From Balanoglossus misakiensis (Eukaryota; Animalia; Hemichordata), in contig CM082576.2 of assembly GCA_040954595.2 (NCBI GenBank), positions 17,903,028-17,967,027 of the forward strand: DNA of 64,000 nucleotides, in the 5' to 3' direction. Below are positions 12,163-64,000 of the stretch, in pieces. The position numbers were made by a program, and so were the translations under genes. Below the pieces are notes generated by a model. The model was not told where the DNA came from and did not search any database. It worked only from the letters and a program-made list of their open reading frames with translations. Position 1 is the stretch's first letter; every line of letters begins with the position of its first letter.

Positions 12163-13699
12163 CAACTGCAGTCGGCACGACCTACTAGTCCTGTTTCATA
12201 AGTCAGGTCCATGACATATGTACCGACATCTGTGATTGGTCCATCTGGTAATCTTAGGTCCACTTGCGGCACGCTGATTGGAGGGACCATATGTGTTAGG
12301 TCTTATCATTATGTATTATTCACTAGACCTTGTAGGTTAGGTCTTATTACTATGTATTATTCACTTTACAGCTCCCTGATTGGTTAATGTGTAGGTCTGG
12401 TCCTCCAGTGTTCACTGCCTCATTATGCAGGACCTTGTAGGTTAGGTCTTATTTATATGCATTTATTCAATTTTCAGCTCCCTGATTGGTTAATGTGTAG
12501 GTCTCCAGTTTTCACTGCCTCGTTATGCAAAGTCTTTTGTACTTTCTGAATACTGTTGTCGTATTCTGTCTGGCATGCTACCTGCGCATGGTCGAAGCTC
12601 GCGATCGATCCCAGTGTATAAAGAAAGGCACTCATATAATGATTGGATTTCACCTTTTCCTTCACTATTCATGGCATTTTATGTGATACTGTGAACTAGA
12701 TACTCGAAATAAAAATTGCCAGGAGAAATTTCGCATTTATTTCCAGTGGCGGTTTGTTGAAATGGGCTAGTGTTTTGTTACGTAATGTCTTTCAGCGCAT
12801 CACTTCGTGTAACACCTGGCTGAATACGAAGTGTGTGCTATTCATTCGAGCAAACCAAAAATATCTTACAATAGAAATGTTTAGAATAGCATTGCATTTC
12901 TTTGGGAAACCTCATTAGTTGCTTTACAGGTATGATTACTTTTATTGTATTTCTTTCACGAAGCTGCACCGTCATAGTTCCATTTTTATGAAAACAATAT
13001 ACGAATGTATAAACGGACGACGTGCTCCTTATCACAACATCTTCGTCAAAACAAATTTACTTTAAAATAGTAATAACAACAATAATAAAATTGATGGTGA
13101 GAAGTAGGAGGGTGATTAAAAAAAAATACAACTGTTAGCTAAAATGCTTAGATGAGTTAATCAGATTTTCAAAGTTCACCTAAAAGATCATTTAATCTTT
13201 CCAGGGTGCGGTTTATGTTGGAGATAGTATCAGTCAGGCTATTTCTCAGAAAATCAATGAACGATCTGCGGACACCTCGAATAATGTGTTACCACAACGC
13301 TAGCCAGGAAGCACATGGGACATTTCACAATGAGGCAGTGAACACTGGGGGACCAGACTGACACGTTAACCAATCAGGGAGCTGTATGGTGAATAAATAC
13401 ATATTAATAAGACCTAACCTACAAGGTCCTGCATAATGAGGCAGTGAACACTGGAGGACCAGACCTACACATTAACCAATCAGGGAGCTGTAAAGTGAAT
13501 AATGCATAGTAATAAGACCTAACCTACAAGGTCTGGTGAATAATACATAGTAATAAGACCTAACACATAAGGTCCCTCCAATCAGCGAGCCGCAAGTGGA
13601 CTTTAGAGAAGCGGATAAACCAATCAGAACATGTAATACGTGTGCATAGGACCTGTAATGTAGGTCATTTTGAAACAGGACTACTAGGATCTTCAGTTG
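12163..13699. mobile_element. Long-TIR (foldback-like) non-autonomous element
   Basis: Arms ~12163-12530 and ~13325-13699 are inverted copies built of subrepeats (GTTAGGTCTTATT; CAGCTCCCTGATTGGTTAATGTGTAGGTCT); ~790-bp unique spacer; no clear TSD. Confidence 0.75.
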
Positions 13700-15387: not shown

Positions 15388-15609
15388 CTTGTGTGGTGCA
15401 CCTGACTTTGACAGTACCTGTGTGCGAACATTAGAAGCAGCCATCCTGGGCATGGCTGACCAGAAATTTGTGCAAGATGGCGGCCAGTAACTGACCCTTG
15501 CCTTTTAGCTGGCACAGCCAGCAGTGGGAATGGGGCAGGGGAGCAGGCAAGACACTGGAAACATTTCTTCTACAGGCAATGTTTAAAGCTTGTTTTGTTT
15601 TTTCCTCAG

Positions 15610-15806
15610 GTTCAGCACAAGCACATTAAAGAGAAAAAGTTAACAATGGAAGAACTTGCAGAGATGTATAGCAGCCAGAAAATGATCCTTCTGAGGAAAC
15701 AAGAACGGCTACAAATCCAATTAGAATGGATTTCACAAAACGAGGCAATGTTACATGATTTTACGAAACTGGCCGATACTTTCAAGACATTGGAGCAGGA
15801 GACAAG
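15610..15806 (+). CDS. Host gene exon, coiled-coil-like (VQHKHIKEKKLTMEELAEMY...LEQET)
   Basis: Acceptor TTTTTTCCTCAG|, donor AAG|GTAGGT, phase 0-2; matches ORF 15595..15810. Confidence 0.85.
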
Positions 15807-16776
15807 GTAGGTGTGGCGTACACTTGTATATATGTGCAAAGTTGAATATACCGCAGTTCATGATACTTCAGTGGCACCTTTGTGAGAACAAAAATTAAGC
15901 GGTCTAATTATGTGGTCAGAACTATAATATTCACATTTTATATTTTGCACAATTTTCATTTCAATCAGAGCGCACTCGTATTATTTGCACATTGTACATG
16001 TGGTATCTCATGACAGTATTGTAGTCATCATGTACTGCATGACTGGTTGGCCCAGTCTCAAGCAGTTCAAAAATAATGTACACCCAAAAGGAACATGGTC
16101 TTAGAGTTTTTGTGCCAACCAAAATGAAACGGTCTAATCATGTGGAAGTCATTTTGTCAACTGTAACTCATTGTAAAACAGGGAATTAAAGCAGTGAAAA
16201 TGCTCTGAGTGCGTCGACAGAGTTGCATCACCCAGGAAAATACGGATGAAGTCGTCAAAATGCACCCAAATGACAAAAAAGTGGTCTGGCTGCAAAACGC
16301 CTCAGCCAAATTTTGTATAAATTGGGTCCATATAAATGAAAATTGGGTCCACCAAAATTGAAAAGGTGTCTGCAAATATTATAGTAGTTCTGACCCAGAA
16401 TTTAAATTGTTGTTGGCGTGTAGGGGCCAATATGGTCCATTGCATTTTCTCATCAGGGGCCACCCCTGTTTGTATGTATATTGGCCAGACTTTCCCATTG
16501 AAAACAACATTTGGATCAAACCACCAATGTGGTAAAAGAGGTAGATTAATTCAAATACTGAATGAACAGCATTGAAGAATTATGTGTCTTTTAATTTGCG
16601 TCTTTTTCAATAATGTCTTAGCTTTCATTTTTGTGTGTATATACCAAGAATGTGGCAGTTTCTTGAAGAGGGTGCACATACGTGTCTAACAATTTTGGAA
16701 ATCACTGAAAATAACCTGTAAATTGCTGAAATATGAGTCAGTTTGAGCCCATGAGTCTTGTGCATACTATCAACTA

Positions 16777-18895: not shown

Positions 18896-20169
18896 TTTGG
18901 GGGCACAAGCGCCCTCAGGCGGCTTGTGCCCCCATTGTTATTGTTGGAATTTTTCTTTATTATTATTCTTCTTCTTCTTCTTCCGAGAAATTCGGCCAGG
19001 TAGATCTGGGAAACCGCTGCACCTAGGGGGCTGAAACTTGGTAGGGTGGTAGGGGCCAATGAGTAGACGTGCAGTGGCTCGTGAATATTTAATTAGTCAC
19101 GTGACCTGGCGGCCATATTGGATTTCCTGAAAATCGTTAAACGAGTCCTTCTCAAAAGCTGCTGGGCCGATCGAGTTCAAATTTGGTGTGCAGGTAGCCT
19201 ACCTTCTGTCCATCATTTTACCCCTTGAAATCATGACGTCACACATAAAGTTTTTTTGCTACAATTGTTTTTCTGAAAAACTACTTAAAACTTTAAAAAT
19301 CTTCTTCTCCAGAACCAGCGGTTACCGAGTCTTGGGATTTGGGATATGTGGTCACCTAACCTATGTCTATCAAGTTTGCGAAGCGCACTGTGATTGGTCG
19401 ATCATTATGGCGGCCATGTTGGATATTCGGAAAACCATTGAAAAGTAATAATTCTGTTTTGTAGCCAAAATGTTGACAGCATGGAAATTCTTTTTTTGGA
19501 TATGAGTCATCATATGACCGGAAGTTGTCACAATTTTTCGGGGCAATTTTCACATGACCTTTGACCCATTTTAAACAACTAATTATATATGCATAATCCC
19601 CATACCTCCTCTTGTCAAAGCACCACAGTCATGAATTTTGTGGACATGGGTACCAATGCTGCCAGGACATGGCACAAATATTTTGGTAATTTTGGCAATG
19701 ACCCTTGACCTATTTCTGAAACATCATTTTTCTGCATATCTAAATCCATGCTACCCAATAGGGCTAGAGGTCTGGTATTGGTTGGACATGGCCCACTCTG
19801 GGGTCAAAATTTTATGCCCTAATTTTGGGTGACCTTGGGTGACCTTTGATCTACTTTCCCATATCTCAGCATCCAGAGCAGTTAGAGCCCTGGCTTTTAT
19901 GGGGATCGAGCACATAATGGAGTCCTACACAAGACCTCATTAATTATGTGCATACCTAATTGCAGGCGAACCAATAAGGCTAGGGGTCTGGTTTTTTGTT
20001 GGATCTAGACTAGTATGGGGTCCAATTTTTTTGCCCAAATTTGGGGTGACCTCAGGTGACCTTTGACCTACTTTCCCATATCTTGGTATCCCCAGCAGAT
20101 ACAGCCGTGGCATTTGCTGGTCACCATGGGAACCGCTTGTGCCCCGCCAACGCTGCTTGCAGCTTTAAT
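18896..20169 (+). mobile_element. Non-autonomous Helentron-like (HINE/DINE-type) element
   Basis: 5' hairpin GGGGCACAAGCG...CGGCTTGTGCCCC, (TTA/CTT)n tract, 3' subterminal GCTTGTGCCCC followed by short hairpin GCTGCTTGCAGC and T-rich end; no TSD. Confidence 0.75.
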
Positions 20170-20393
20170 TTCCTTTTTCATTGTAAAATTGCACTTTTTT
20201 AAAAATTGCAGGAATTTTCGTTTTTTTCTTTAATTTTTGGCCATTTTGTCATAAATAAGTGTTGAGCTTGATATATCATCATGAAATATAATTTAATAGA
20301 CATAATTAAAAGTATATATGAGATTATTTAAAACTGTAATTTTTTATTCAGTTGCAGCTCATGTACCTTTAATAAGGAGCAATAACAACCAAA

Positions 20394-21869
20394 AATTAAA
20401 GCTGCGAGCAGCATTGTCGGGCCCAAGCGCTGATCTTGAATTATATATGCACAGTATGAATGAGAAGAAACAGAATTTTCTATTGGATGTATTATCTTAT
20501 GACATAACAAGGATGTGTGTATTTTTGCCGCTGAAATAGGGTGAAGTAGGTCAAAGGTCACCTGAAGTCACCCGACATTTGGGCAATTTTTTTGACCCAT
20601 ACTGGTCCATGTCCAACAAAAACCAAAACTCTAGCTCTATTGGTTCGCCTGTAATTAGGTATGTGCATATTTAATGAGGTCAGCAGGTGTCACAGGTGAC
20701 CCAAAAATGTGGCTTTAGATTTTGGTCCCATCCTACCAAATGCCATGGTTGTATCTGCTCTGGATGCTGAGATATGCGAAAGTAGGTCAAAGGTCACCAG
20801 GGGTCACCCAACATTTGGGCAAAAAATTTTGATCCTATACTGGTCCATGTCCAACAAAAACCAAACCCCTAGCTCTATTGGTTCGCCTGTAATTAGCTAT
20901 GCGCATAATTAATGAGGTCAGCAGAGGTCAAAGGGGTCATGAAAAGTAGCAAAATATTTTGATCACACACTAATCCACATTCATCAAAAACCAAACGTCT
21001 AGCCCTATAGGTTAGCCTGGAATTAGATATGCAGAAATAATAACGCGTGATAAGTAGGTCAAAGGTCATGTGAAAAATCGCCAAAAAATTGTAACATATT
21101 TTAGTCACATGACGATTGATATCCATAAAAAGAATTTGTATGCTATCAATTTTTGGACTAGAAAAAGGAATTTCAATTTTTCACTGCTTTTTACAAAATC
21201 CAATATGGCCGCCATAATCTTCGACCAATCACAATGCTCTTTGCAAACTTGATAGACATCAGTGTAGTGACCATACTCCCCGAATCTTGCGACTTAGTCA
21301 TCGTCGGTTCTGGAGAAGAAGATTTTTGGAGTTTAACTATGGTTTTTCGAAAATCCAATATGGCCGCCATAATCTTCGACCAATCACAATGATCTTCGCA
21401 AACTTGATAGACATCAGTTAGGTGACCACATACCCCAAACCACGTGTCTTGGTTATCACCGGTTCTGGAGAAGAAGATTTTTGAAATTTAAGCCAGATTT
21501 CTGAAAAAAAATTGTAGCAAAAAAACTGCAACATTGACAGCAAAATTTCCAATTACAAAAATGATGGGTAGAAGGTAGTCTACCTGCATGCCAAATTTGA
21601 AGTCGATCTGACTTGTAGTTTCTGAGATCTGAGATTTGATTTTTTTCAGAAAATCCTATATGGCCGCCAGGTCATGTGACTAATTAATTATTCACAAGTC
21701 ACTGCACATCTACTCATTGACCTTGACCACTGTAGCAAGTTTGAGAAGTGTACCTGAAGTAGTTTCAGAGATCTCGTTGGCCGAAGAATTGACACAAGAA
21801 TAAAGAAAGAAAGAAAAATTCCAACGAAACCAATAGGGCCCAAGCGCTTGCTTGCGCTTGGGCCCTAAA
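20394..21869 (-). mobile_element. Helentron-like element, same family, reverse orientation
   Basis: Begins AATTAAAGCTGCGAGCAGC...GGGCCCAAGCGC, ends TAGGGCCCAAGCGC...GCGCTTGGGCCCTAA; internal tandem subunits. Confidence 0.75.
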
Positions 21870-25478: not shown

Positions 25479-26865
25479 TCTCAAACGGTCACAATTTAGC
25501 CAAATTCGTTAAAAAAATGAATAAACGACTCTGGAACTGTAGTCTAGGCACGTTGTAGTCTCGCGCCATTGGATAATATTTAGAGCGCATTTGCAAAAGA
25601 ACGCTTTGTCAACCAATCAGTGCTAGCGTCAGATTCAGCTTTCGATTCAGTGAAAGTGTGGGATCAATTTGTTCTCACACTCCCAGTGTGAAACAGTGTG
25701 TGTAGTGAGAGGTAGTCTGTACAGTGTTGTTAGACCATCGTGTAGAATGTGGAGAGACAGTAAAGAGGCCAAGACATGGGGCCAAAGTAAAATGATGTTA
25801 GATCCCACCAGGACAATATTAAAGAATAATACTTAATTGTTGGATTTCAGTGATTTACTGTGCATTTTATTTTATTCTGAGAGCCTGTTAAATACTCAGA
25901 ATATATTGTGCAAACACCAACTGATATATAATGGCCTGGTTTTTTTGCTGGGGAAATACAGTATTGAATTCAGTTACAAGTACAGTACATGTATCAGAGA
26001 TATTTCTGGTAAAAAGCAAAACAATTATCTCGCACTGTCTGCATCTGTGCAAATATGCCAGAGAACTGGTTTTACCTTCGGCCTAAAAACATTTAAAAAA
26101 ATTTCTTCGCTCGCTGCTCCTGGAACTAGGTCAAAACAATCCAATGAACAAGATTGTTCTCTCTGGCCTAATATCAATATAACTGTTTGCTGCTCCATTT
26201 TATGTAGATGGGAATTTATATGGGGTTTGTAAAGTTTCTTCAAACATTCAGAGTATGCCAGTTCACATAGATGAAAACATCTAAGTCAACGCACAACATT
26301 TAAAGTTGTGCAAAAACTAACCAACACTCGAGCCCAAATTCCCAGAACATCAAACTGTGACAAGTTTTTCTGGTGATGATATGAAATTAAACAACTGTCT
26401 AGTTCCGTGAAAATGGTCATGATAATTGACACTTATTGCATAACTTCAGATGACTATATGAAATTGGAAAAGATGGTCATTTCCACAGAATCCGTGATTA
26501 CTCATTCTGTCTATTTCTAGGATGTTATTGGTCATTACTGCAAATTTCCGCTCATTACTGCTCGTTACAAGTTTAACAAGCACCCAACAAAACACCCAGA
26601 AGTCATTTAGAATGGCACAAAATAACAAGTCCATAAAAACTGAGCATGATTCATTGTCGATGTAGACTGCATATAGTACTACTTGATGGATTTTTTGCAT
26701 TACCTGGCATGTGTACTGCAAAGACAATGCCTGGAGTTATAGAGGGTGTTTGATCACAGAAGCTGTCTTTTGTGTCACATGCAGTCAAATTACTCCTCAT
26801 TGTCACCACGACCCTCAGCTCATCATTTATACTTTTCCTGTACGGCATCTGTTTTCTTTTTTCAG

Positions 26866-26908
26866 ATACGAGAAACTAGATGCTGGTTTGCAGGATGGAG
26901 AACATTGA
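26866..26908 (+). CDS. Host gene terminal coding exon (RYEKLDAGLQDGEH-stop)
   Basis: Strong acceptor TTTTCTTTTTTCAG|; phase 2 continues the exon ending at 17125; TGA at 26906-26908. Confidence 0.7.
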
Positions 26909-27583
26909 TCCGTATGCCACCTGGCAGATTGAAGTCCGACTACCAATAGTACCATGCAGAAACTAGATGCTGGTTTGCAGGATGGAGAACATTGATCCGT
27001 ATGCCACCTGGCAGATTGAAGTCCGACTACCAATAGTACCATGCAGAAACTAGATGCTGGTTTGCAGGATGGAGAACATTGATCCGTATGCCACCTGGCA
27101 GATTCAAGTCCGACTACCAATAGTACCATGCAGAAACTAGATGCTGGTTTGCAGGATGGAGAACATTGATCCGTATGCCACCTGGCAGATTGAAGTCCTA
27201 CTACCAATAGTACCATGCAGAAACTAGATGCTGGTTTGCAGGATGGAGAACATTGATCCGTATGCCACCTGGCAGATTGAAGTCCTACTACCAATAGTAC
27301 CATGCAGAAACTAGATGCTGGTTTGCAGGATGGAGAACATTGATCTGTGTGCCACCTGGCAGATTGAAGTCCTACTACCAATAGTACCATGCAGAAACTA
27401 GATGCTGGTTTGCAGGATGGAGAACACTGATCTGTGTGCCAACTGGCAGATTGAAGTCCGACTACCAATAGTACCATGCAGAAACTAGATGCTGTGTTGA
27501 AAGATGGCGGAGATTGATCTGTATGCCACCATAGCAGAGGAATGCTGCAAGATGATTTGGACCAGAAGTCCAACTACCATGCA
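26871..27583. repeat. 87-bp tandem array, ~8 copies, overlapping the stop codon and 3' UTR
   Basis: AGAAACTAGATGCTG recurs at 26871, 26958, 27045, 27132, 27219, 27306, 27393 and 27480. Confidence 0.97.
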
Positions 27584-27898
27584 GTCTCCATGATGACTCA
27601 TCTGTCAACAGAGGTCCGTAGACGCATGGACTCCCAGCTTGCAGTGCTTACGGTAGTTTTGGGGGCATCCCTGCCATGCATTTTTATATATTTGTGTAAA
27701 TTTAGTTAATTTTGGTGTACACATCTGTATTTGGACGGTTTATTTATATAGGTATATTAAGTTATTTTGTTAGTTGTTACTTGTAGTTATAGTTAGTTAT
27801 AATATAGTATAGTTATAGGGTATTTATGTTTGTTTGTTTGTTTGTGTGTGTGGTGTAAGTGTGTGTGTCATTCAAAGTGTAGGGTACCTGTTTATTAT

Positions 27899-36860: not shown

Positions 36861-36865
36861 GTTTA

Positions 36866-38404
36866 CTGGTCCTGGGCCGCTGTTAATTTTATAAGCCTGT
36901 GCAGACGCGCAGACACATGGCATGACCTCCAACAAAAGTTGCTTCATCTTTTGTCATGTTTAGCTGAGTTGTTACAATGCGCGCCCGCGCTCAGAGTGTT
37001 GCTTGTGTTACAAGGCTATTGATGCTACTTATAGGACGCCTGTCTAAAGAAAATTTGTGCACTGAATGAAATGGCAGCGCACTGCTCTTGACAGCGTGCA
37101 CAGCTGCGTTGCTTCTAGGGTGATTCAAGCCGTGGACGGTGTGAAATCACTCAGTTGTGTTCACTAAATTATCAAAAATTGAAAGGGAGTAGTAAGTTAC
37201 AGTGAAAGCAAAGGTGGATGCAGAGCAAAAGTATGGGAGGTGACAATCTGTCATATTGTTGTTCACTCAGTAAGAATGTGTCACAGTGACCCATGAAGAT
37301 TTATTTTGTTGTGACAATCCAATATTTATTGCATCAAATGTCGCAAGGCCGCACGCAAGCTGAAACACTGTATATTGTTTTATTTCTGTAATTTGTGATT
37401 TTAGATAGTATTAGTGTTTAAAACACAGAGAGAGCACCTATTTAGGATTCTTAGCCACCCATTTGTTTTTCCAACTGATTATCTGAAATTTTACAAAGCA
37501 AAGCGGATAGTTCTGATAGACAGACAAAAACTACTTGTATGATAAAATTATACTGTTACCAAGTGAAGGAATGTCTTGCTTGTGTCTAGAAATCACAAAT
37601 TATCACAGTCTACTGGTTAGGACCTTGCAGGCCTACAGATATTCGGATGACTGCTTTCAGGACAGTTACACTTGAACATTGCAGCCTTCTACTGCAATTG
37701 CACCTTAATCTTTAACCCCAATCTAACCACTAACATTAACCTCTAACCTCTAACCACTAACCTAAATAGCAGGCAGGAATGTCCACGTTTTCTGTCCTTG
37801 AAGTTGATACCCTCTGAATATTTGGCAAAAGTCAGATTGTCTTGACACTTAAACAAAAGTGCCAATGTTGTATGACTGCCTACCAAATATGCTCTCTCTT
37901 TCAGTGTTTCAGCTAGCGTGCGGCCTTGTGACATTTGACGCAATAAATGTTGGATTGTCGCAACGGAATAATCTTCATGGGTCACTGTGATGCATTCTTC
38001 CTGAGTGAGCAACAATGTGACTGATTGTCACCCCTATACTTTTGCTTTGCGTCTAACTTTGCTTTCACTGTAACTTACTACTCCCTTTCAATTTTTGATA
38101 ATTTAGTGAACACAACTGAGTGATTTCACACCTTCCACGGCTTGAATCACCCAAGAAGCATTGCAGCTCTGCACGCTGTCAAGAGCAGTGTGCTGCCATT
38201 TTATTCAGTGAACAAGTTATCTTTAGACAGGCGTCCTATAAATAGCATCAATAGCCTAGTAACACAAGGAATGCACTGAGCTCGTGCGAGCATTGTAACA
38301 ACTCAGCTAAACATGACAAAAGATGAAGCAACTTTTGTTGGAGGTCATGTCATGTGTCTGCGCGTCTGCACAGGCTTATAAAATTAACAGCGGCCTAGGG
38401 CCGG
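36866..38404. mobile_element. Long-TIR non-autonomous element (~500-bp arms), TA-flanked
   Basis: 36866-37370 is an inverted copy of 37902-38404; ends TA|CTGGTCCTGGGCCGCTG ... CAGCGGCCTAGGGCCGG|TA. Confidence 0.85.
37639..37821. repeat. Small insert with degenerate (CTAACC)n telomere-like tract
   Basis: CTAACC-like units at 37712-37765; short inverted ends ATATTCGGA / TCTGAATAT. Confidence 0.5.
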
Positions 38405-39330
38405 TAATAATTGCGAAGGGAAGATAAATTTCATTGCCACCTGCCCTGATTTATGCCTACTTGATAAGGTAAACTTTTAATTACTTTGCACTATTTGATT
38501 TTGTTTAGAATAGGGTGGGGTATGATTGCAAAAAAATTATTATCAAAGTAATTAATCTGATCCTGAATGTTGATCTTTCCCCCCCCAAAAAAAACACAAC
38601 AACAATACACAATAGCATTTCTTCACCAATGGCAGTTATCATAATTAACACAAAATCTGAGATGTCTTGTCTTAGGATATGTTCAATTTCTAAAAATTAC
38701 ATAATGTACATTGTAGTAGGATGTAAAAGACAACCGGCACTGAAAACTTGTGAACTTGGCATGGACAGGCAGTGTTTCATCCAGGACACAGGTGAATTAG
38801 GCGTTCTGTTCGGGGAAACAAACAATCAAATAAATAAACAAACAAACAAACAAAAAAGAAACAACAACCACCATCATGATAAACAACGCAGTGTCTTGAA
38901 TTGAACCACCCATTCGCGCGATCGAGCAGCTGACACAAGAAGTGGCTTGTGTCAAAGGTCCCGTCCGTATGCCAGTAAATTGTCATATAGTGGGAAGGTG
39001 TCCAACTCCCACTTGAAAACTGCTCGACACTGTTGAATATTTGCAATTTTTTAGCCTCTAAATGTCTGACATCTATAAAATTTCTACCCCATTTTAAAAC
39101 ATCAATAAACAGGCTATCATATCAGCATCCATTTATCAGTCTCTTTTACTACTGGTTGTTGCTAGCGCGTAAAAAATATGACAACATCACAGTTTTTGAG
39201 GGGCATAGCAAGTTGTGGGAACATCAGGGTGTTTTATTGTAGCGGACTTCGTAACCCCAGGTCAATTTCAAATACTTTCACTAGTAATAGTATTTCACTA
39301 GGCCTACTTTACACTGGATATAAAAACGAC

Positions 39331-50308: not shown

Positions 50309-51575
50309 AATAATAATAATAATTTATTTATATAGCGTCAGTATCCACAAAAATGTGATCAATGACGCTTAAAGCAAAAATACAATACAACAAATGGCTA
50401 AAAAACAGATTTAAAGAGTAAAGTTTTAACATTTGATTTAAAAACAGAGAAGTCTGGTGCCTGGTGAATGGTGAGTGGAAGATTATTCCAAAGAATTGGA
50501 GCAGCAACAGTAAAACCCCGTTACCATAACTCCTGGTGCGTGATCGAACAGGACAGAGTTTGAACTGATCAGCTGACCTTAAATTGCGACACGGAACATA
50601 CAGATCAGTCATGTTAGAAAGATAGATTGGACCAAGTTTATGAATGGATTTAAAAATGAGAACTAACATCTTAAAAACAATACGCTCTGTAACAGATAGC
50701 CAGTGCAACTGATACAAAATCGGAGTGATGTGACAGGTGATTTTTGAACGAGTAACAATTCTAGCAGCAATATTCTGAACGCGTTGAATACGGTTGATTG
50801 AATACTTCGGGAGCCCAAATAAAAGTGAATTACATGAATCAATTCGAGAAGTAATGAATGCATGAACTAATTGCTCTGTAGCAGATTGAGATAAATATTT
50901 GCAATAAGTGCAATGCGACGTAAATGAAAAGTGGCAGAGCGGCAGATCTGTCCAATATGTGGCTTCATTGTCAGACAAGAGTAAAGGATCACTCCAAGGC
51001 TCTTAGCCTGACAATGGACGGGAATCAGAGAATCGCCAACACAAATTTCTGAAATCCCTCTAGCAGACAGATCACCCGAAGTACCAGAGAAAATAACAAA
51101 TTCAGTCTTATCATCGTTTAAGCACAAGAAGTTTTCAGACATCCAAAACCTAACATCGGATATACAAAGTTCAAGATTTGAAACAGTTCTTGCTGTGTTG
51201 TCTTTACAAAAAGACATATAAAGGGAAGAGTCATCTGCATAAAAACTATAAAGACAACCATGACTTTGAACTAATTCACCTAATGGAGACATGTACATAT
51301 TGAAAAGTATGGGACCAAGAACTGATCCATGTGGTACCCCAGTGTCGAGCGGATAGAAAGGTGATTGGGTGGAATTTACAAGTATGCACTGACTACGATT
51401 GGAAAGGTATGACTTAAACCACATGGGAACAGGATCTGAGAGACTAAAGCGGTCTCTTAAGCGATTGAGTAAAATGGTATGGTTCACAGTGTCAAATGCT
51501 GCGGAAAGATCGAGTAATACCAGGAAAACCTCTCGTTTTTCATCAAGAGCAAGCAAAATGTCAGAAGAAAGAGTG
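50309..51575 (-). mobile_element. 5'-truncated L2/CR1-group LINE (RT domain and C-terminus)
   Basis: LVLLDLSAAFDTVNH, GVPHGSVLGPILF, YADDS, LCLNDDKTE, LVHAFITSRIDSCNSLL and HITPILYQLHWL; frameshift near 50900; (TTA)n tail at 50309-50323. Confidence 0.95.
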
Positions 51576-54004
51576 AAACTCCAAAGGTTTAAATTTTCTG
51601 ATGCCTCTAAGTCTGTGATGAGTCTATTTTGAATGAAAGACCAAAACATGTTCGTCTTCTTATTTGTCGTCGCTACTTTAATTCTTATTTACTTTAAATT
51701 TATGTTGATACAGAGATTTGTTGCAAACAACATTCTCCAGAAATCTTTGAATGCATCCCATTCTTATCAATTTTAATCTTTAAAAAGTTATACAAATCGA
51801 GTTGATATACCAGTAATAGCAATTACCCCCCCCCCCCCCCATATTGGCTTTGAAACCGGGAGTGTATCTCCGCTCCTGACTAAGTTTCGGGGGCAGGGTA
51901 AAACCATACTTACCCCCCCCCCCACCATGCACAAAATCCCCCCTTACCCCCCCCCCCCCACCCCCGCCAATGATCATATTTTACACCAATAGGGATATGG
52001 ATTTAAAGAATGGCGCAATCACTGTGAATAACTGAAGTATAAAAATCAAAGATAACAGAAGCGCACATTTTGTTGTTTATGGAACATACAGTGTAATTGG
52101 CTGGGAGGCTTCATGAATCAATAATTGGACGCCAATCAAACTAATCTTTAACGAAAGTCGCTGATCGAAGAAAGTACATTTGTAGCAATGTGTGTGACAT
52201 GAATACAGTTGAATTCAATTTTTGGAACAATACTCAGAAAATTGTCAATCATAACAGATACTGGAGCTTTTACAATAATATTTGTTCACTTTATTTCTTG
52301 CTATTTCTCCCTTTTTATTATTTGCATTTAATCAGTAATCAATTTATTCAGCTATTTATTTTTATCATAAAACAATTGTGTCCAGAAAATATGTAACTTT
52401 GTCCCCGTACAAGAAATTGCTTCCTGCACCCCTGAAAAAGTGAAAATGTGCAAATCTAAGCAACAAAATATCATTAAGGAAATTCAACTTTTTGGTGCAT
52501 TTAATCTCTTTTATTTAGTACTGTCTTTATGAAATTACATTCTCTAGTGAGAGCAGCGCAGAGACACAGGAGAACAGAACTTTTGTCTCTCTTTTCGAGC
52601 GTCCACATCGCTTCATATATTGCTGTGGCGTTAAAGTCGGCTGTTACAATAACATTGATTGTGTAACAACGAACTACAAATTCTCACCAATATTCATAAG
52701 CTTTTCCATGCCATCGTCAATGAAAACGGCACTGGCATTCTGATTTGTAGATCATACGGCGGAGTTGGTATTCCCTGGAGAAAGTCGCTGTCGAGAATAG
52801 CCGATCTTGGTATTGGGAACATAGTCGAATAATGGATTTTGATAACAGCGGTATGCCATCGAAGCCTGCTCTGTAGAAATATGTTTTGTCGGGACTGCAA
52901 AATCTGCCCGACACAAGTCCGACATTTGGCCGTCGTGCATTACCATGATAAACGTGACAAGGCAAAGTTGTGAAAAACCGACTTTGTCATCTCAAAAAAC
53001 CCTGCCGGTGTACATGATGCAGAATTCCGGCATGCCAGTCGAAACTTTCCCGGTACCTTTTTGTTGATGGCGAATACCGTTTGCCACACGAAATTTCGAC
53101 GTGTCATTTGTGAAGTCACAACAGACCTGGCTGTATGATGCGACAATCTACGACAAGAATCACGTGGTTCTCAGTTGCATTTAAATTTTTATTCGTAATC
53201 TGCTCTTTAAAAACTGTATATCATGTTCTGACAGACTTCACCTTTACCAGAAAATGCATTTAGTTAAATCGTATAGATTTTCGAAGTTCTAAGTATCAAT
53301 CACAATTTCGGAAAAAAATGCATGGTTGTCTCTATACATGGTTTCTATATATCTACCCAGTGCCCGTCAGTAGCCTAAACCACTTAACTGTGCAACCCGG
53401 TCGGGCATTTTTTTTCTATCAAACACAAACAAAAATCTATTCATGGATGCGTCAATGAAGCACGCCAAAACAGGATCCCAACCAATCACAACGATGTACT
53501 ATTTCTGGCCATGTTACACCGATGTTTTTACGTGATATGGCGGCAGATGTATGACCTGTCATACTGTCCCTACGTTCCAACAAGTCAGCTACTGACCGGA
53601 AAATTAATTTTTTGGTGAAAAAACATTTTATTGTTTATATTGTTTAACGTTAAAATTTTACTCTGTCTCTGGGCATGCAAGCCTTACCCTATGTGCAGCG
53701 CAATATATTATTAGCATTCTTGTCGCACATCACCAATCAAGTAGGCCTAGGTTGGCATTATATGCAATAATTGAAGCATTGGTGGCCTAGTTGGGTGGGT
53801 AGATGGTGGGCCATCCAGCCACCCAACCAGCCCAACAAGGCTACAATTATTGCAGCTAGGCAGGCATGGAATGTAAGGCTAATTGAATTCAATTACTCAG
53901 AATGACTATCCTCGAATCGTATAGCACAACGCAATTCGCTGATCGCGGTTTCGGCGGTCAAATCATAGAAAGCTCGTACAGCAATTTTGTAACCAATCCA
54001 ATAA

Positions 54005-57587: not shown

Positions 57588-59228
57588 ATTGGTTTGGACA
57601 TGAGTTTGTTGTTTGCTGTTTGGTTGGTCATGGAGCAACAGTCATGGAGCAACACGTAACATTGCCTGGGGTGTTCAATTCTGTAAATGGCATGAGATAG
57701 TTGCATGTACCCGAGTCTAGTGAAACATCGTTTTTGGCGATGTGGATTTCATTATTGCGTGACTGTGCGGTGGGTCTCGATTCGTTCCTGTCAGACAGCC
57801 CAACAAGGACATACGCTTGACGTGCCTTAAAGGTATACGGTAACCTATGCAAATTTAGCTACAGTTACCATGGCAAATTGAGATACAGCCAATCACAAAT
57901 ATTCAGGAGGTGGCACACGCGACAATAAGAGCGCCACCATTTGTTCTTTAGAACACTAGGATACGCAAGTTTAGCCATTTATGGACATATGCAAATTGGA
58001 GGGGATCGTGTATTAAGTTGTAGACTTTGTCCGACATCGTCCGGTCATCACGGCTGAAATACTCCCATTGCGCATTGCTTATAGATATTTTAGGTCGACC
58101 CCGGTGTAGTCTACTCCAATAGAAATGAAGAAAGTAAATATAAGATTACCGCCCGAAGTCTCAAACGTGAAAGCTATTTCAGTGGCACTACAGTGGATAA
58201 ACATTTAATCCGTGTATACTTCATGAAACTGAATCAGATAACTTTTATTCAAACCAAATAAATGAAACATATGAAGAGAGGCCTATCTTGATTAAACACA
58301 TAAATCTGATATTTTATCATATTAGGTAACTCAATATTTTACACTTGACGTATTTTACCAATAACACAATGTTTCAGCGAACCCGTCAGAAGCAACTTTA
58401 GCAGAATACATTTCCTTGATTTACGTTACATGGTTTAATTCGAGAGACATTTCTCAATAAAATCAAAAGTCACAGTTCATATTTTTTATAGAAACGGTCC
58501 AATTTGTCGAGTGCGCACTGACAAGACATGCATCGTGCATAGACCACTACGCGGATAGGGTATCTGCAATGCATGATGGTATAATTTGCGTTCAACATAG
58601 CGTCTACTGCATGGCTAACGCACGCGCTCAGAACGCAAACTATCCCACAACACCCTGTGTTATGCTATCCGCGAAGTGGTCCATGGCAGTGACAACAATT
58701 CCTATAGAGCAGTTAAGAAATAAACCGGCCGGCCGTAAATTCATTGGCTGTATTTTTTGTATTTATTTGATTTGAAAGGTCGCGTTTTCCCTGTTGCATG
58801 CGATTAGTTCAGGGCCAGTTTCAGCAGTGCTCTATTGAGTACTTTCGTATCGATGGATTGAGCTCTCGTCCAATCAGAATGGCGGATGGTAGCATGATCT
58901 GACATATTGCGTATTGCAATAGGCCTTCCCCAGATAGGTCAGAACGGAGAGGTCATTCCCCTGAGCTTCTTTGTCTTTTCTATTATTTTTTGACAAATGC
59001 GGATTGACGTTCCGTTTCTACATGGCCATGACTGATATTTATTTACGTTTCATAGCGTAAGCGCTTGCTATTCGTTTCGTAATTGTTTTCGTAGTACAAA
59101 CAAATTGAAGAAGACGAAATATATTATCTATGTCCCTAATGAGATAATCGGGGTTACATAATCGCACTTCCAAAGAACGCCGTGACAGAATTCATCAGTT
59201 GGCGAGGCGCATTCTCCACCCGCACACA
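57588..59228. repeat. First unit of a probable ~1.64-kb tandem duplication
   Basis: 57588-58372 matches 59229-59283 plus 63276-64000, with a few substitutions and one 5-bp indel; the second unit runs off the window. Confidence 0.9.
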
Positions 59229-59319
59229 ATTGGTTTGGACATGAGTTTGTTGTTTGCTGTTTGGTTGGTCATGGAGCAACAGTAGTAGTATAGGTTGGAG
59301 CCGTAGCACTCGGATTTGG

Positions 59320-59530
59320 GGAGGAGGAGCTGAGGAGGAGCTGAGGAGGAGGAGCTGAGGAGGAGGCGGAGGAGCTGAGGAGGAGCTGAGGAGGAGCTGA
59401 GGAGGAGGAGCTGAGGAGGAGGCGGAGGAGGAGGAGGCGGAGGAGGAGGAGGAGGAGGAGGAAGAGGAGGAGGAGCTGAGGAGGAGCTGAGGAGGAAGAG
59501 GAGGAGGAGGAGCTGAGGAGGAGGAGGAGG
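59320..59530. repeat. Purine-rich GAG / CTGAGGAGGAG array in the left arm (mirror ~63001-63233)
   Basis: Directly visible; source of the poly-S/P/L ORFs. Confidence 0.95.
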
Positions 59531-59920
59531 CAGACATGGTCCCCTAAGTTGGTGGAAAATTGAGATATGGCTAAGTATATATGGAACGTGCTTTGATTGG
59601 TGGACTTTCTGCAAAGCATGATGTTGGGAGGAGGCAGAGGAGGCAGTGGAGGTGATGAGAGGCGAAGGAGGCCTATCACCCATGAGGTAGACAACCCTAA
59701 ATGTTGGGAGGAGGCAGAGGAGGCGATGAGAGGCGGAGGTGTATCACCCCCTAAGGTAAGGAACCCTAAATGTTGGGAGGAGGCGGAGGCAGGTATTTCC
59801 GGCTGGTCCGATCTCTTCATTTGTATACCATACCATGATTATCGAAGTGCGCCATCTACCGATTGATACCATTTATTCTTTCGGTACACTATTTCACGAC
59901 ATTGTATTCTGTTGACTACA

Positions 59921-61219
59921 ATGAGCTGGGACAGTTCTCCCGAGTTTTCGGCCAGTCAGTGGCAGGAAATTTTAAGTCTTGAGCGTGGGAATGCGAGGGA
60001 AGAAACCGAACATAGCCAGGTAAGTTTTTCATGTAAAATAAATGTTATCGTAGTCACTCGATCGCGCACAGTGTAATTCGCGCCCTGTGTATGGAACTGT
60101 CGTCTGCGTCATGTCCGAATTGACATTGACGTGGATTTCTCCACCAAAATACGCCAATGAATTGAAATCATAAACTAAAATATGTTAGAAATTTTAAATT
60201 AAATTTACGGGTGTAAATTAAATTGGTATAAACATGTTAAAAAACAGCTCCTGTATGAAAGGTGGATATTTCACTGTATGTTGTCGATTGATATGCCGGC
60301 CGGGGTCGTACATACAGTACACAGGTAAAGCACATAGTGTCGCTCTGTTCAACACACTCTGGCATCGAAATATGTTCGATTCAGGTTTACAAAATCTCCG
60401 ACTCATCGTTAATGAAAGGTTTAATAACCCAATGTGTTTGTATATTCTTATTAAATGCTAGATCAATGTCAACATTCAAAAAAAAAAAAAAAAATTTGCC
60501 TCAAAACGATCGTGGGTGAACATCCGCGCACTACTCGTAGTGTCGCTGGGCCAGTATACACGGCACTGTTACGCACGGATTCCAATTAACACGCCTTTGT
60601 TATTTAAATCAGCACATCGTCACAATGTTACTATATTGTTCCCCATTCATTCCTCATGTAGGACACTCACGTGTATGACGCGTGCCTGTTTGCCAGATGG
60701 GTTAAATTTCATCACACATTAGCAGTTAAAAGTGAGATGTTTTCTGTACTTGATGGTCGTGTTTAACCTTATACACACGTATGCGTTTCCTTGTAATAGG
60801 ATCAGCATGAACTCGCTGCAGGGAGTGAGTCACAGCATCACAATTTGATTGCACCGCATCCAAACGTAATCGGGTAAGTTTTACCTTTCTTTCTTTCTTT
60901 CTTTCTTTAGAACAATTAATTTAATAGAAACGAAGAATATTTGTACTTTTTTTTCTTCTTATCTATCATTTTCGTTTAATAGGGACACCGGGGAAGAAGA
61001 AATGGAAAGACAGGATACGGGTGCCTCATCATCCCCGCATCCAAACGTAATCGGGTAAGTTTTACCTTTCTTTCTTTAGAACAATTAATTTAATAGAAAC
61101 GAAGAATATTTGTACTTTTTTCTTCTTCTTATCTATCATTTTCGTTTAATAGGGACACCGGGGAAGAAGAAATGGAAAGACAGGATACGGGTGCCTCATC
61201 ATCCAAGAGATATAGGTAA
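59921..61219 (+). CDS. Predicted 4-exon ORF, ~103 aa, acidic/Ser-rich (exons 59921-60019, 60800-60873, 60983-61054, 61153-61219)
   Basis: ATG 59921; donors CAG|GTAAGT and CGG|GTAAGT (twice); acceptors TTTCCTTGTAATAG| and TTTTCGTTTAATAG| (twice); all phases compatible; TAA at 61217-61219. Confidence 0.6.
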
Positions 61220-61310
61220 AATGATTATTATTGAACTTCACCGCCCTTACAATGTATGAATGTATGTACATGCATGCATGTATGATGATACAGTTATGTT
61301 TGTAATCATT

Positions 61311-62610
61311 TTACCTATATCTCTTGGATGATGAGGCACCCGTATCCTGTCTTTCCATTTCTTCTTCCCCGGTGTCCCTATTAAACGAAAATGATAGATA
61401 AGAAGAAGAAAAAAGTACAAATATTCTTCGTTTCTATTAAATTAATTGTTCTAAAGAAAGAAAGGTAAAACTTACCCGATTACGTTTGGATGCGGGGATG
61501 ATGAGGCACCCGTATCCTGTCTTTCCATTTCTTCTTCCCCGGTGTCCCTATTAAACGAAAATGATAGATAAGAAGAAAAAAAAGTACAAATATTCTTCGT
61601 TTCTATTAAATTAATTGTTCTAAAGAAAGAAAGAAAGAAAGAAAGGTAAAACTTACCCGATTACGTTTGGATGCGGTGCAATCAAATTGTGATGCTGTGA
61701 CTCACTCCCTGCAGCGAGTTCATGCTGATCCTATTACAAGGAAACGCATACGTGTGTATAAGGTTAAACACGACCATCAAGTACAGAAAACATCTCACTT
61801 TTAACTGCTAATGTGTGATGAAATTTAACCCATCTGGCAAACAGGCACGCGTCATACACGTGAGTGTCCTACATGAGGAATGAATGGGGAACAATATAGT
61901 AACATTGTGACGATGTGCTGATTTAAATAACAAAGGCGTGTTAATTGGAATCCGTGCGTAACAGTGCCGTGTATACTGGCCCAGCGACACTACGAGTAGT
62001 GCGCGGATGTTCACCCACGATCGTTTTGAGGCAAATTTTTTTTTTTTTTTTTTGAATGTTGACATTGATCTAGCATTTAATAAGAATATACAAACACATT
62101 GGGTTATTAAACCTTTCATTAACGATGAGTCGGAGATTTTGTAAACCTGAATCGAACATATTTCGATGCCAGAGTGTGTTGAACAGAGCGACACTATGTG
62201 CTTTACCTGTGTACTGTATGTACGACCCCGGCCGGCATATCAATCGACAACATACAGTGAAATATCCACCTTTCATACAGGAGCTGTTTTTTAACATGTT
62301 TATACCAATTTAATTTACACCCGTAAATTTAATTTAAAATTTCTAACATATTTTAGTTTATGATTTCAATTCATTGGCGTATTTTGGTGGAGAAATCCAC
62401 GTCAATGTCAATTCGGACATGACGCAGACGACAGTTCCATACACAGGGCGCGAATTACACTGTGCGCGATCGAGTGACTACGATAACATTTATTTTACAT
62501 GAAAAACTTACCTGGCTATGTTCGGTTTCTTCCCTCGCATTCCCACGCTCAAGACTTAAAATTTCCTGCCACTGACTGGCCGAAAACTCGGGAGAACTGT
62601 CCCAGCTCAT
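61311..62610 (-). CDS. Mirror copy of the 4-exon ORF in the right arm (exons 62610-62512, 61730-61657, 61547-61476, 61377-61311)
   Basis: Reverse complement of the left-arm model. Confidence 0.6.
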
Positions 62611-64000
62611 TGTAGTCAACAGAATACAATGTCGTGAAATAGTGTACCGAAAGAATAAATGGTATCAATCGGTAGATGGCGCACTTCGATAATCATGGTA
62701 TGGTATACAAATGAAGAGATCGGACCAGCCGGAAATACCTGCCTCCGCCTCCTCCCAACATTTAGGGTTCCTTACCTTAGGGGGTGATACACCTCCGCCT
62801 CTCATCGCCTCCTCTGCCTCCTCCCAACATTTAGGGTTGTCTACCTCATGGGTGATAGGCCTCCTTCGCCTCTCATCACCTCCACTGCCTCCTCTGCCTC
62901 CTCCCAACATCATGCTTTGCAGAAAGTCCACCAATCAAAGCACGTTCCATATATACTTAGCCATATCTCAATTTTCCACCAACTTAGGGGACCATGTCTG
63001 CCTCCTCCTCCTCCTCAGCTCCTCCTCCTCCTCTTCCTCCTCAGCTCCTCCTCAGCTCCTCCTCCTCTTCCTCCTCCTCCTCCTCCTCCTCCGCCTCCTC
63101 CTCCTCCGCCTCCTCCTCAGCTCCTCCTCCTCAGCTCCTCCTCAGCTCCTCCTCAGCTCCTCCTCAGCTCCTCCGCCTCCTCCTCAGCTCCTCCTCCTCA
63201 GCTCCTCCTCAGCTCCTCCTCAGCTCCTCCTCCCCAAATCCGAGTGCTACGGCTCCAACCTATACTACTAACAGTCATGGAGCAACACGTAACATTGCCT
63301 GGGGTGTTCAATTCTGTAAATGCCATTAGATAGTTGCATGTACCCGAGTCTAGTGAAACATCGTTTTTGGCGATGTGGATTTCATTATTGCGTGACTGTG
63401 GGTCTCGATTCGTTCCTGTCAGACAGCCCAACAAGGACATACGCTTGACGTGCCTTAAAGGTATACGGTAACCTATGCAAATTTAGCTACTGTTACCATG
63501 GCAAATTGAGATACAGCCAATCACAGATATTCAGGAGGTGGCACACGCGACAATAAGAGCGCCACCATTTGTTCTTTAGAACACTAGGATACGCAAGTTT
63601 AGCCATTTATGGACATATGCAAATTGGAGGGGATCGTGTATTAAGTTGTAGACTTTGTCCGACATCGTCCGGTCATCACGGCTGAAATACTCCCTTTGCG
63701 CATTGCTTATAGATATTTTAGGTCGACCCCGGTGTAGTCTACTCCAATAGAAATGAAGAAAGTAAATATAAGATTACCGCCCGAAGTCTCAAACGTGAAA
63801 GCCATTTCAGTGGCACTACAGTGGATAAACATTTAATCCGTGTATACTTCATGAAACTGAATCAGATAACTTTTATTCATACAAAATAAATGAAACATAT
63901 GAAGAGAGGCCTATCTTGATTAAACACATAAATCTGATATTTTATCATATTAGGTAACTCAATATTTTACACTTGACGTATTTTACCAATAACACAATGT

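Follow-up and report, generated by a model that had tools for sequence, protein, structure and literature searches.

The locus raises the question of why two identical genes, each apparently spliced and both pointing at the same spacer, should lie in the two arms of a palindrome, and in particular whether they form a complete twin mini-gene with a product of its own. We analysed the palindrome together with its surroundings in the window, i.e. the whole 64-kb stretch of DNA, which is repeat-rich and has a G + C content of 39%. The reading that we favour, with a probability of roughly 0.55, is that the palindrome is a non-autonomous 4-kb fold-back derivative of a Maverick-type element, and that each arm carries a truncated, spliced passenger gene. 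Its starting points, namely the ends, the target duplication, the empty site, the identical arms, the strong splice donors and the open spliced frame, can be read directly from the DNA.

The insertion runs from position 59284 to 63269 and is 3,986 bp in size; 3,911 of these bp are within the arms, meaning that approximately 98% of it is one inverted repeat. The left arm (59284–61227, plus strand; 1,944 bp) opens with a Maverick-type (AGT)2 end motif and the right arm (61303–63269, minus strand; 1,967 bp) closes with (ACT)2, giving termini that read AGTAGT at the start and ACTACT at the end. The arms are separated by an unpaired centre of 75 nt (61228–61302). A 6-bp target-site duplication, AACAGT, is present at both sides of the element (59278–59283 and 63270–63275). 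A target duplication of 14 bp was rejected, as it would leave asymmetrical ends. The target sits in a 1,641-bp tandem unit (57588–59228 and 59229–59283 plus 63270–64000), the copies of which are 98% identical and have a CpG observed/expected ratio of 1.08. In the neighbouring copy, a single AACAGT with the same flanks (57637–57642) represents the empty site, and the right flank of the insertion is identical to the flank of this empty site at 723 of 736 positions (98%). The tandem may have arisen by local duplication or may represent two haplotypes that the assembly placed one after the other; the empty site is supplied either way.

Comparison of the two arms did not reveal a single substitution; the only differences are a single A and two units of an 11-nt repeat. 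Because of this, and because the CpG observed/expected ratio is 1.0 in the element versus 0.63 for the 64-kb window, the data point to a young insertion. Near its ends, the element contains a GGA/11-bp repeat tract (59320–59530, plus strand; mirror copy 63001–63233), followed by 2.2 copies of a 69-bp subterminal repeat (59637–59789, plus strand), which contain a strong donor after 59755. There is a weak indication that the inner edge of the true terminal repeat of the parent may fall within 59637–59789. In the list of open reading frames no frame longer than 192 codons was found inside the element, and most of its frames come from the GGA tract. The Maverick core genes (polymerase B, integrase, ATPase, protease and capsid) are absent, and six frames of the element gave no Pfam match near the cut-off.

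Elsewhere in the window, positions 26784–27605 hold an 87-bp tandem array, the minus strand of which contains a frame of 248 codons without a stop. A retroelement at 50328–51688 (minus strand) is represented by reverse-transcriptase frames that are broken (RVT_1, E 3e-22); together with the repeats and the G + C content, this would fit an animal genome. Three other pairs of inverted repeats, at 36863–38407 (375 nt, 93%), 12233–13626 (272 nt, 92%) and 19258–21364 (284 nt, 74%), are probably older non-autonomous DNA transposons. In the second half of a 116-codon frame at 15460–15810 (plus strand), the sequence resembles a host-gene exon encoding a coiled coil, with a sub-threshold Pfam match only.

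Four exons are predicted on the plus strand of the left arm: exon 1 at 59921–60019 (33 codons from an ATG to a phase-0 donor), exon 2 at 60800–60873 (74 nt, with a phase-2 donor), exon 3 at 60983–61054 (72 nt) and exon 4 at 61153–61215 (63 nt up to a likely phase-2 donor, with phase 2 at both ends). The mirror copies of exons 1 to 4 are located on the minus strand of the right arm, at 62512–62610, 61657–61730, 61476–61547 and 61315–61377, respectively. The predicted introns, of 780, 109 and 98 nt, are of the GT-AG type, and the G + C content is 49–54% in the exons and 22–38% in the introns. When joined, the exons give 103 codons followed by a TAA at 61217–61219, which is 8 nt short of the arm end at 61227. 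All of this was found where an earlier note on this DNA had placed it: four exons that join in frame, an identical convergent copy in the opposite arm and a stop 8 nt before the arm ends. The splicing is a prediction from sequence. Among the 103 residues of the predicted peptide, 22 are acidic and 7 basic, and they include no cysteine, LxCxE or CXXC.

As to the number of independent observations, exons 3 and 4 were generated by one tandem duplication, of 60854–61034 as 61035–61204 (181 and 170 bp), so that three independent exons should be counted, not four. Likewise, since the arms themselves are identical, the two gene copies are a single piece of evidence.

The donors were ranked with an approximate matrix against a background taken from both strands of positions 1–57000 of the window (6,799 GT sites). 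The donor after 60019 outranked all 6,799 background sites, and for the donors after 60873 and 61054 only one of the 6,799 was equal or better. The donor after 61215 is weaker than these three and falls only in the top 4.7%. Two GGTAAGT sites are present in 59535–61034; when this region was shuffled 2,000 times with its dinucleotides preserved, 11 of the shuffles had as many (mean 0.11). With an ad hoc score, the acceptors at 60983 and 61153 were in the top 1% and that at 60800 in the top 5.5%; the acceptors at 60911 and 61080 outscore the chosen ones but follow their donors at distances of just 37 and 25 nt. One further donor, after 59755, had been overlooked in the earlier note and is matched or exceeded by one of the 6,799 background sites. 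It ends a stretch of 46 codons in phase 0 that starts with the ATG at 59618 (59618–59755, plus strand; mirror copy 62776–62913, minus strand). A coding 'exon 0' at this place was set aside, the frame being broken by a 16-nt insertion at 59647 in a contig of run X1 (see below); the stretch may be a non-coding or an alternative first exon.

Related copies were compared using contigs from two DNA runs (X1 and X2) of one sample of one study, a third run (X3) giving no contig. The sample is possibly the source of the assembly itself, so that its runs do not count as independent support; it could also be pooled, which bears on the count of sequence types. For the region around the arm end (61045–61302), 11 contigs were compared and three loose ends dropped; letters were compared only up to 61250, everything beyond being judged by length alone. 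Five of the 11 contigs cross the arm end at 61227 unbroken. Two of them, X1#5 (347 nt) and X2#11 (188 nt), begin at 61175 and reach 271 and 112 nt past 61250, respectively; the diverged contigs X1#3, X1#6 and X1#7 likewise cross 61227. At least positions 61228–61250 of the unpaired centre are ordinary family sequence. Contigs of this assembly method cannot repeat a 31-mer. If X1#5 and X2#11 tracked the path of the window as far as they extend, they would repeat a 31-mer from 61303 on; the copies that they represent must therefore leave this path between 61250 and approximately 61332. In this one sample, and given this assumption on contig building, the family continues at the point where the palindrome turns round. 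These positions are likely the start of the next intron, and the fold-back junction is situated further to the right of 61250. We rejected a parent with terminal repeats ending at 61227, since it predicts a branch at a position that five contigs cross.

For the region upstream (59535–61044), there were 46 and 32 contigs, and the comparison rests on the 16 pieces listed. At least three sequence types were seen over exon 1 in run X1, showing that the family is multi-copy. Two deletions at the DNA level, of 518 and 233 nt, lie wholly inside intron 1, with joint sides of only 27 and 30 nt. The contig depth in X1 was 663 over 59535–59648 versus approximately 250–350 in the gene region, whereas X2 had no such step (865 versus approximately 160–1,600); contig depth is not a copy number and was not used to place the terminal repeat of the parent. 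Loose ends with a doubled GATC in X2 are, by inference, a trait of a proximity-ligation library, which makes breaks in X2 unreliable. In one X2 loose end, terminus-like letters are joined directly to the 69-bp repeat region before 59707, which suggests that there is a relative whose end is far shorter and without the GGA tract.

The unbroken contigs over 61227 would be equally expected if the parent itself had longer arms that continue alike. The palindrome could then have arisen, by loss of the centre, from a longer palindromic satellite of Mavericks with the whole spliced gene in both arms; the fold-back would be old and family-wide, and the gene would still be truncated here. In one contig, similarity to the arm ceases behind 59730 and the next 255 letters are unlike it, which resembles the inner end of a terminal repeat of ordinary length (402 bp on average) and thereby argues, weakly given that the copy types differ there, against such long arms. 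We consider this satellite origin unlikely, but it is the alternative that survives best.

Under either origin, the significance of the stop at 61217 has to be decided. The introns after 60873 and 61054 also open with GTAA in phase 2, and each gives an in-frame TAA when retained. As any phase-2 GTAA donor yields such a stop, the one at 61217 is automatic. The site itself, AG-GTAAAA after 61215, follows a 63-nt exon with phase 2 at both ends and precedes sequence with a G + C content of 32%. Because family sequence continues beyond the arm end, a donor at 61215 would be a simpler reading than a true stop, and what is present here is likely the 5' fragment of a longer, intron-bearing passenger gene. 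The earlier note had mentioned this possibility, i.e. that 61215 is a donor and that the fold-back point cuts the gene short, as an alternative to its complete gene; with the shared phase-2 GTAA and the copies that continue past 61227, it has become the better supported of the two.

Constraint on the frame was assessed in the diverged copies of the upstream region. In one type (represented by X1#2 and X2#11 of the 59535–61044 set), five scattered gaps total 18 nt. If the place of a gap is taken as the first missing base, this type has an ATG 29 codons before the donor and its first six residues are identical; with the other reading of the gaps it has no ATG. In another type, 9 nt are inserted between two codons of the last exon, which also carries a silent change; its acceptor and the 61215 site are retained. 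Among the gaps listed, three of three in exons and one of seven in introns were in frame (Fisher p 0.033), after removal of double-counted events and of rows stemming from the duplication in the window itself, with one ambiguous row dropped and one further gap row existing. The p value becomes 0.061 when the ambiguous row is counted as in frame and 0.08–0.13 without the tandem duplication. The substitutions listed (45, with 13 further ones existing) include 14 in exons: 10 missense changes, 3 silent ones and 1 nonsense change. The nonsense change affects codon 14 in contig X1#3 of the 59535–61044 set and gives an early stop in one copy type. With one more silent change, deduced from the gaps, the silent share is 4 of 15, which equals the neutral expectation (p 0.52 and 0.79). 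The donor after 60019 is too near the contig ends for scoring in diverged types. Together, this fits a real gene in which constraint on the front part is limited to the frame, or one that is decaying in some copies. The conservation of frame and splice sites in diverged members, on which the earlier note had made its gene depend, is thus divided: start and frame are kept in one copy type, and an early stop is present in another.

With these results the proposal of a complete, functional accessory protein of 103 residues ending at 61217 can be weighed. The open spliced frame, the in-frame exon indels and the AG-GTAAAA site (hence the TAA) kept in a diverged copy are what such a protein would predict. 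Against it, the stop is the one that phase-2 donors yield automatically, constraint at the amino-acid level is lacking, one copy type has the early stop, and neither an LxCxE motif or cysteine nor a Pfam match near the cut-off was found. A complete protein of this kind is very unlikely. The description in the earlier note, of an accessory protein of viral type that is small and acidic and has a basic tail, is unlikely for a complete product because the tail ends at the donor, in addition to the missing motifs and constraint.

Searches with exon 1 as a query did not yield a homologue among proteins of 91–2,000 residues (7 candidates) or of 28–90 residues. In the Atlas, the best scores were 0.82–0.83, to hypothetical proteins, which is below its reliable range; short, low-complexity queries of this kind are weak. 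Metagenome contigs gave no matches for two end patterns and viral contigs none for the 69-bp motif. An 18-mer match in three viral loci was dismissed as chance: the best extends to 22 nt inside a long frame on the opposite strand, with no further similarity.

If transcription crosses the centre, a long hairpin would follow from the geometry. For a plus-strand transcript, the first ATTAAA after the centre is at 61380–61385, with others at 61436, 61550 and 61605; the first of these is possibly an incidental poly(A) signal, as predicted from the motif. A transcript that stops there would still form a stem of approximately 90 bp (-181.8 kcal/mol, predicted), and both predicted genes point inward, as might be expected of a hairpin-RNA locus that the host has retained for silencing the parent family. 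The stem, however, follows from geometry alone, and the identical arms and the adjacent empty site point to a recent event, for which there is no sign of selective retention; we give such a locus slightly less credence than a complete protein. In Rfam, three microRNA-precursor matches to the centre were all far below the gathering score and are explained by the hairpin. A broader idea is that Maverick replication gives rise to copy-back molecules by which an intron-bearing passenger gene becomes an integrated hairpin with convergent transcription, and that such an element acts as a double-stranded-RNA trigger against every Maverick with that gene. It would then be a defective-interfering element of the germline, silencing the helper on which it depends; we regard this idea as rather improbable.

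Least probable of all is an assembly artefact (a fold-back read or collapsed ends) or chance splice signals: no strand-changing, fold-back joint is present among the X1 and X2 contigs listed for 61045–61302, but a minor branch may be pruned or filtered from contigs, the arms differ in their repeat lengths, a simple fold-back read is excluded because the right end is followed by the target duplication and the correct flank (98% over 736 nt), and both the donor ranks and the shuffles oppose chance.

The origin that we favour, a fold-back derivative of a Maverick-type element, would have come about as follows. By likeness to the nematode cargo region discussed below, the parent Maverick would have had a spliced passenger gene immediately inward of its terminal repeat, and the piece in each arm would be the acidic, likely disordered N-terminal part of its product. 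During end-primed replication from one end, a template switch approximately 2 kb in would have led to copying back. The resulting molecule, having two good ends, could then have been inserted by the integrase of a helper element. Without the downstream exons, transcripts are predicted to retain intron 4, to stop at its TAA and to fold back, exon 4 pairing with the opposite arm. The output is likely a truncated peptide or a double-stranded-RNA by-product and would not be a selected product. The points against the fold-back reading are that the copy data are from one sample, that a longer palindromic parent fits the contigs equally, that the donor after 61215 is weak and that the substitutions look neutral. 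The 'complete twin mini-gene' largely dissolves into a truncated gene doubled by the geometry of the element.

Comparison with known systems places the element closest to the Mavericks. In these, (AGT)2//(ACT)2 is the commonest end motif, (AG)3//(CT)3 also occurs, and insertions have 6-bp duplications; terminal inverted repeats range from 46 to 1,447 bp (mean 402 bp) and element sizes from 12.7 to 24.6 kb, and in vertebrate Mavericks the core genes lack introns (Barreat and Katzourakis 2021, PMC8097293). The palindrome shares the (AGT)2//(ACT)2 motif, the 6-bp duplication and the inverted ends with autonomous Mavericks/Polintons (PMC8097293; 10.1101/2023.08.22.554363). Unlike these, it measures 3,986 bp in total, its arms of 1.94–1.97 kb exceed the known range of terminal repeats, it has no core genes, and its coding signal is spliced instead of intronless. 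As judged from its sequence, the element behaves as a helper-dependent Maverick derivative and not as an autonomous Maverick.

The gene in the arms is best compared to the cargo of nematode Mavericks, a poorly conserved region of 2–5 kb between the left terminal repeat and the integrase that contains intron-bearing genes (Widen et al., 10.1101/2022.07.12.499685). Here, too, sequence signals alone indicate an intron-bearing and poorly conserved gene beside the terminal repeat. In contrast to that region, the gene is cut off (letters being read only to 61250) and doubled in opposite orientation, and a marked rise in G + C content is lacking (0.41 versus 0.39). If the host is not a nematode, this suggests that intron-bearing passenger genes near a terminus also occur outside nematodes. 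The small 'Oncoid' genes of adintoviruses (PMC8502044) are similar in being accessory genes of a Polinton-type element, whereas the 103 residues encoded here have no LxCxE or paired CXXC. In the Maverick/Polinton literature (including PMC6431247, PMC1864894 and 10.1101/2024.01.15.575659), covered mostly as titles and abstracts and possibly not including catalogued non-autonomous Polintons, no palindromic Maverick derivative with a spliced gene was found; the spliced, truncated gene in the arms is what is particular to this palindrome.

Copy-back or snap-back defective viral genomes, described mainly for negative-strand RNA viruses in a review (PMC13506859), offer the closest parallel to the shape of the element: one end is copied in reverse, the palindrome spans nearly the whole length and the product is helper-dependent. 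The present element differs from them in being DNA, in being integrated with a target duplication, in having a loop of 75 nt and in keeping exons. Maverick replication has so far been inferred mostly from gene content, and an integrated fold-back with a 75-nt loop would be a physical record of a template switch. A fold-back insertion of this kind would show that the ends alone suffice for integration and, if it is transcribed, would allow a direct test for fold-back-derived small RNAs against helpers.
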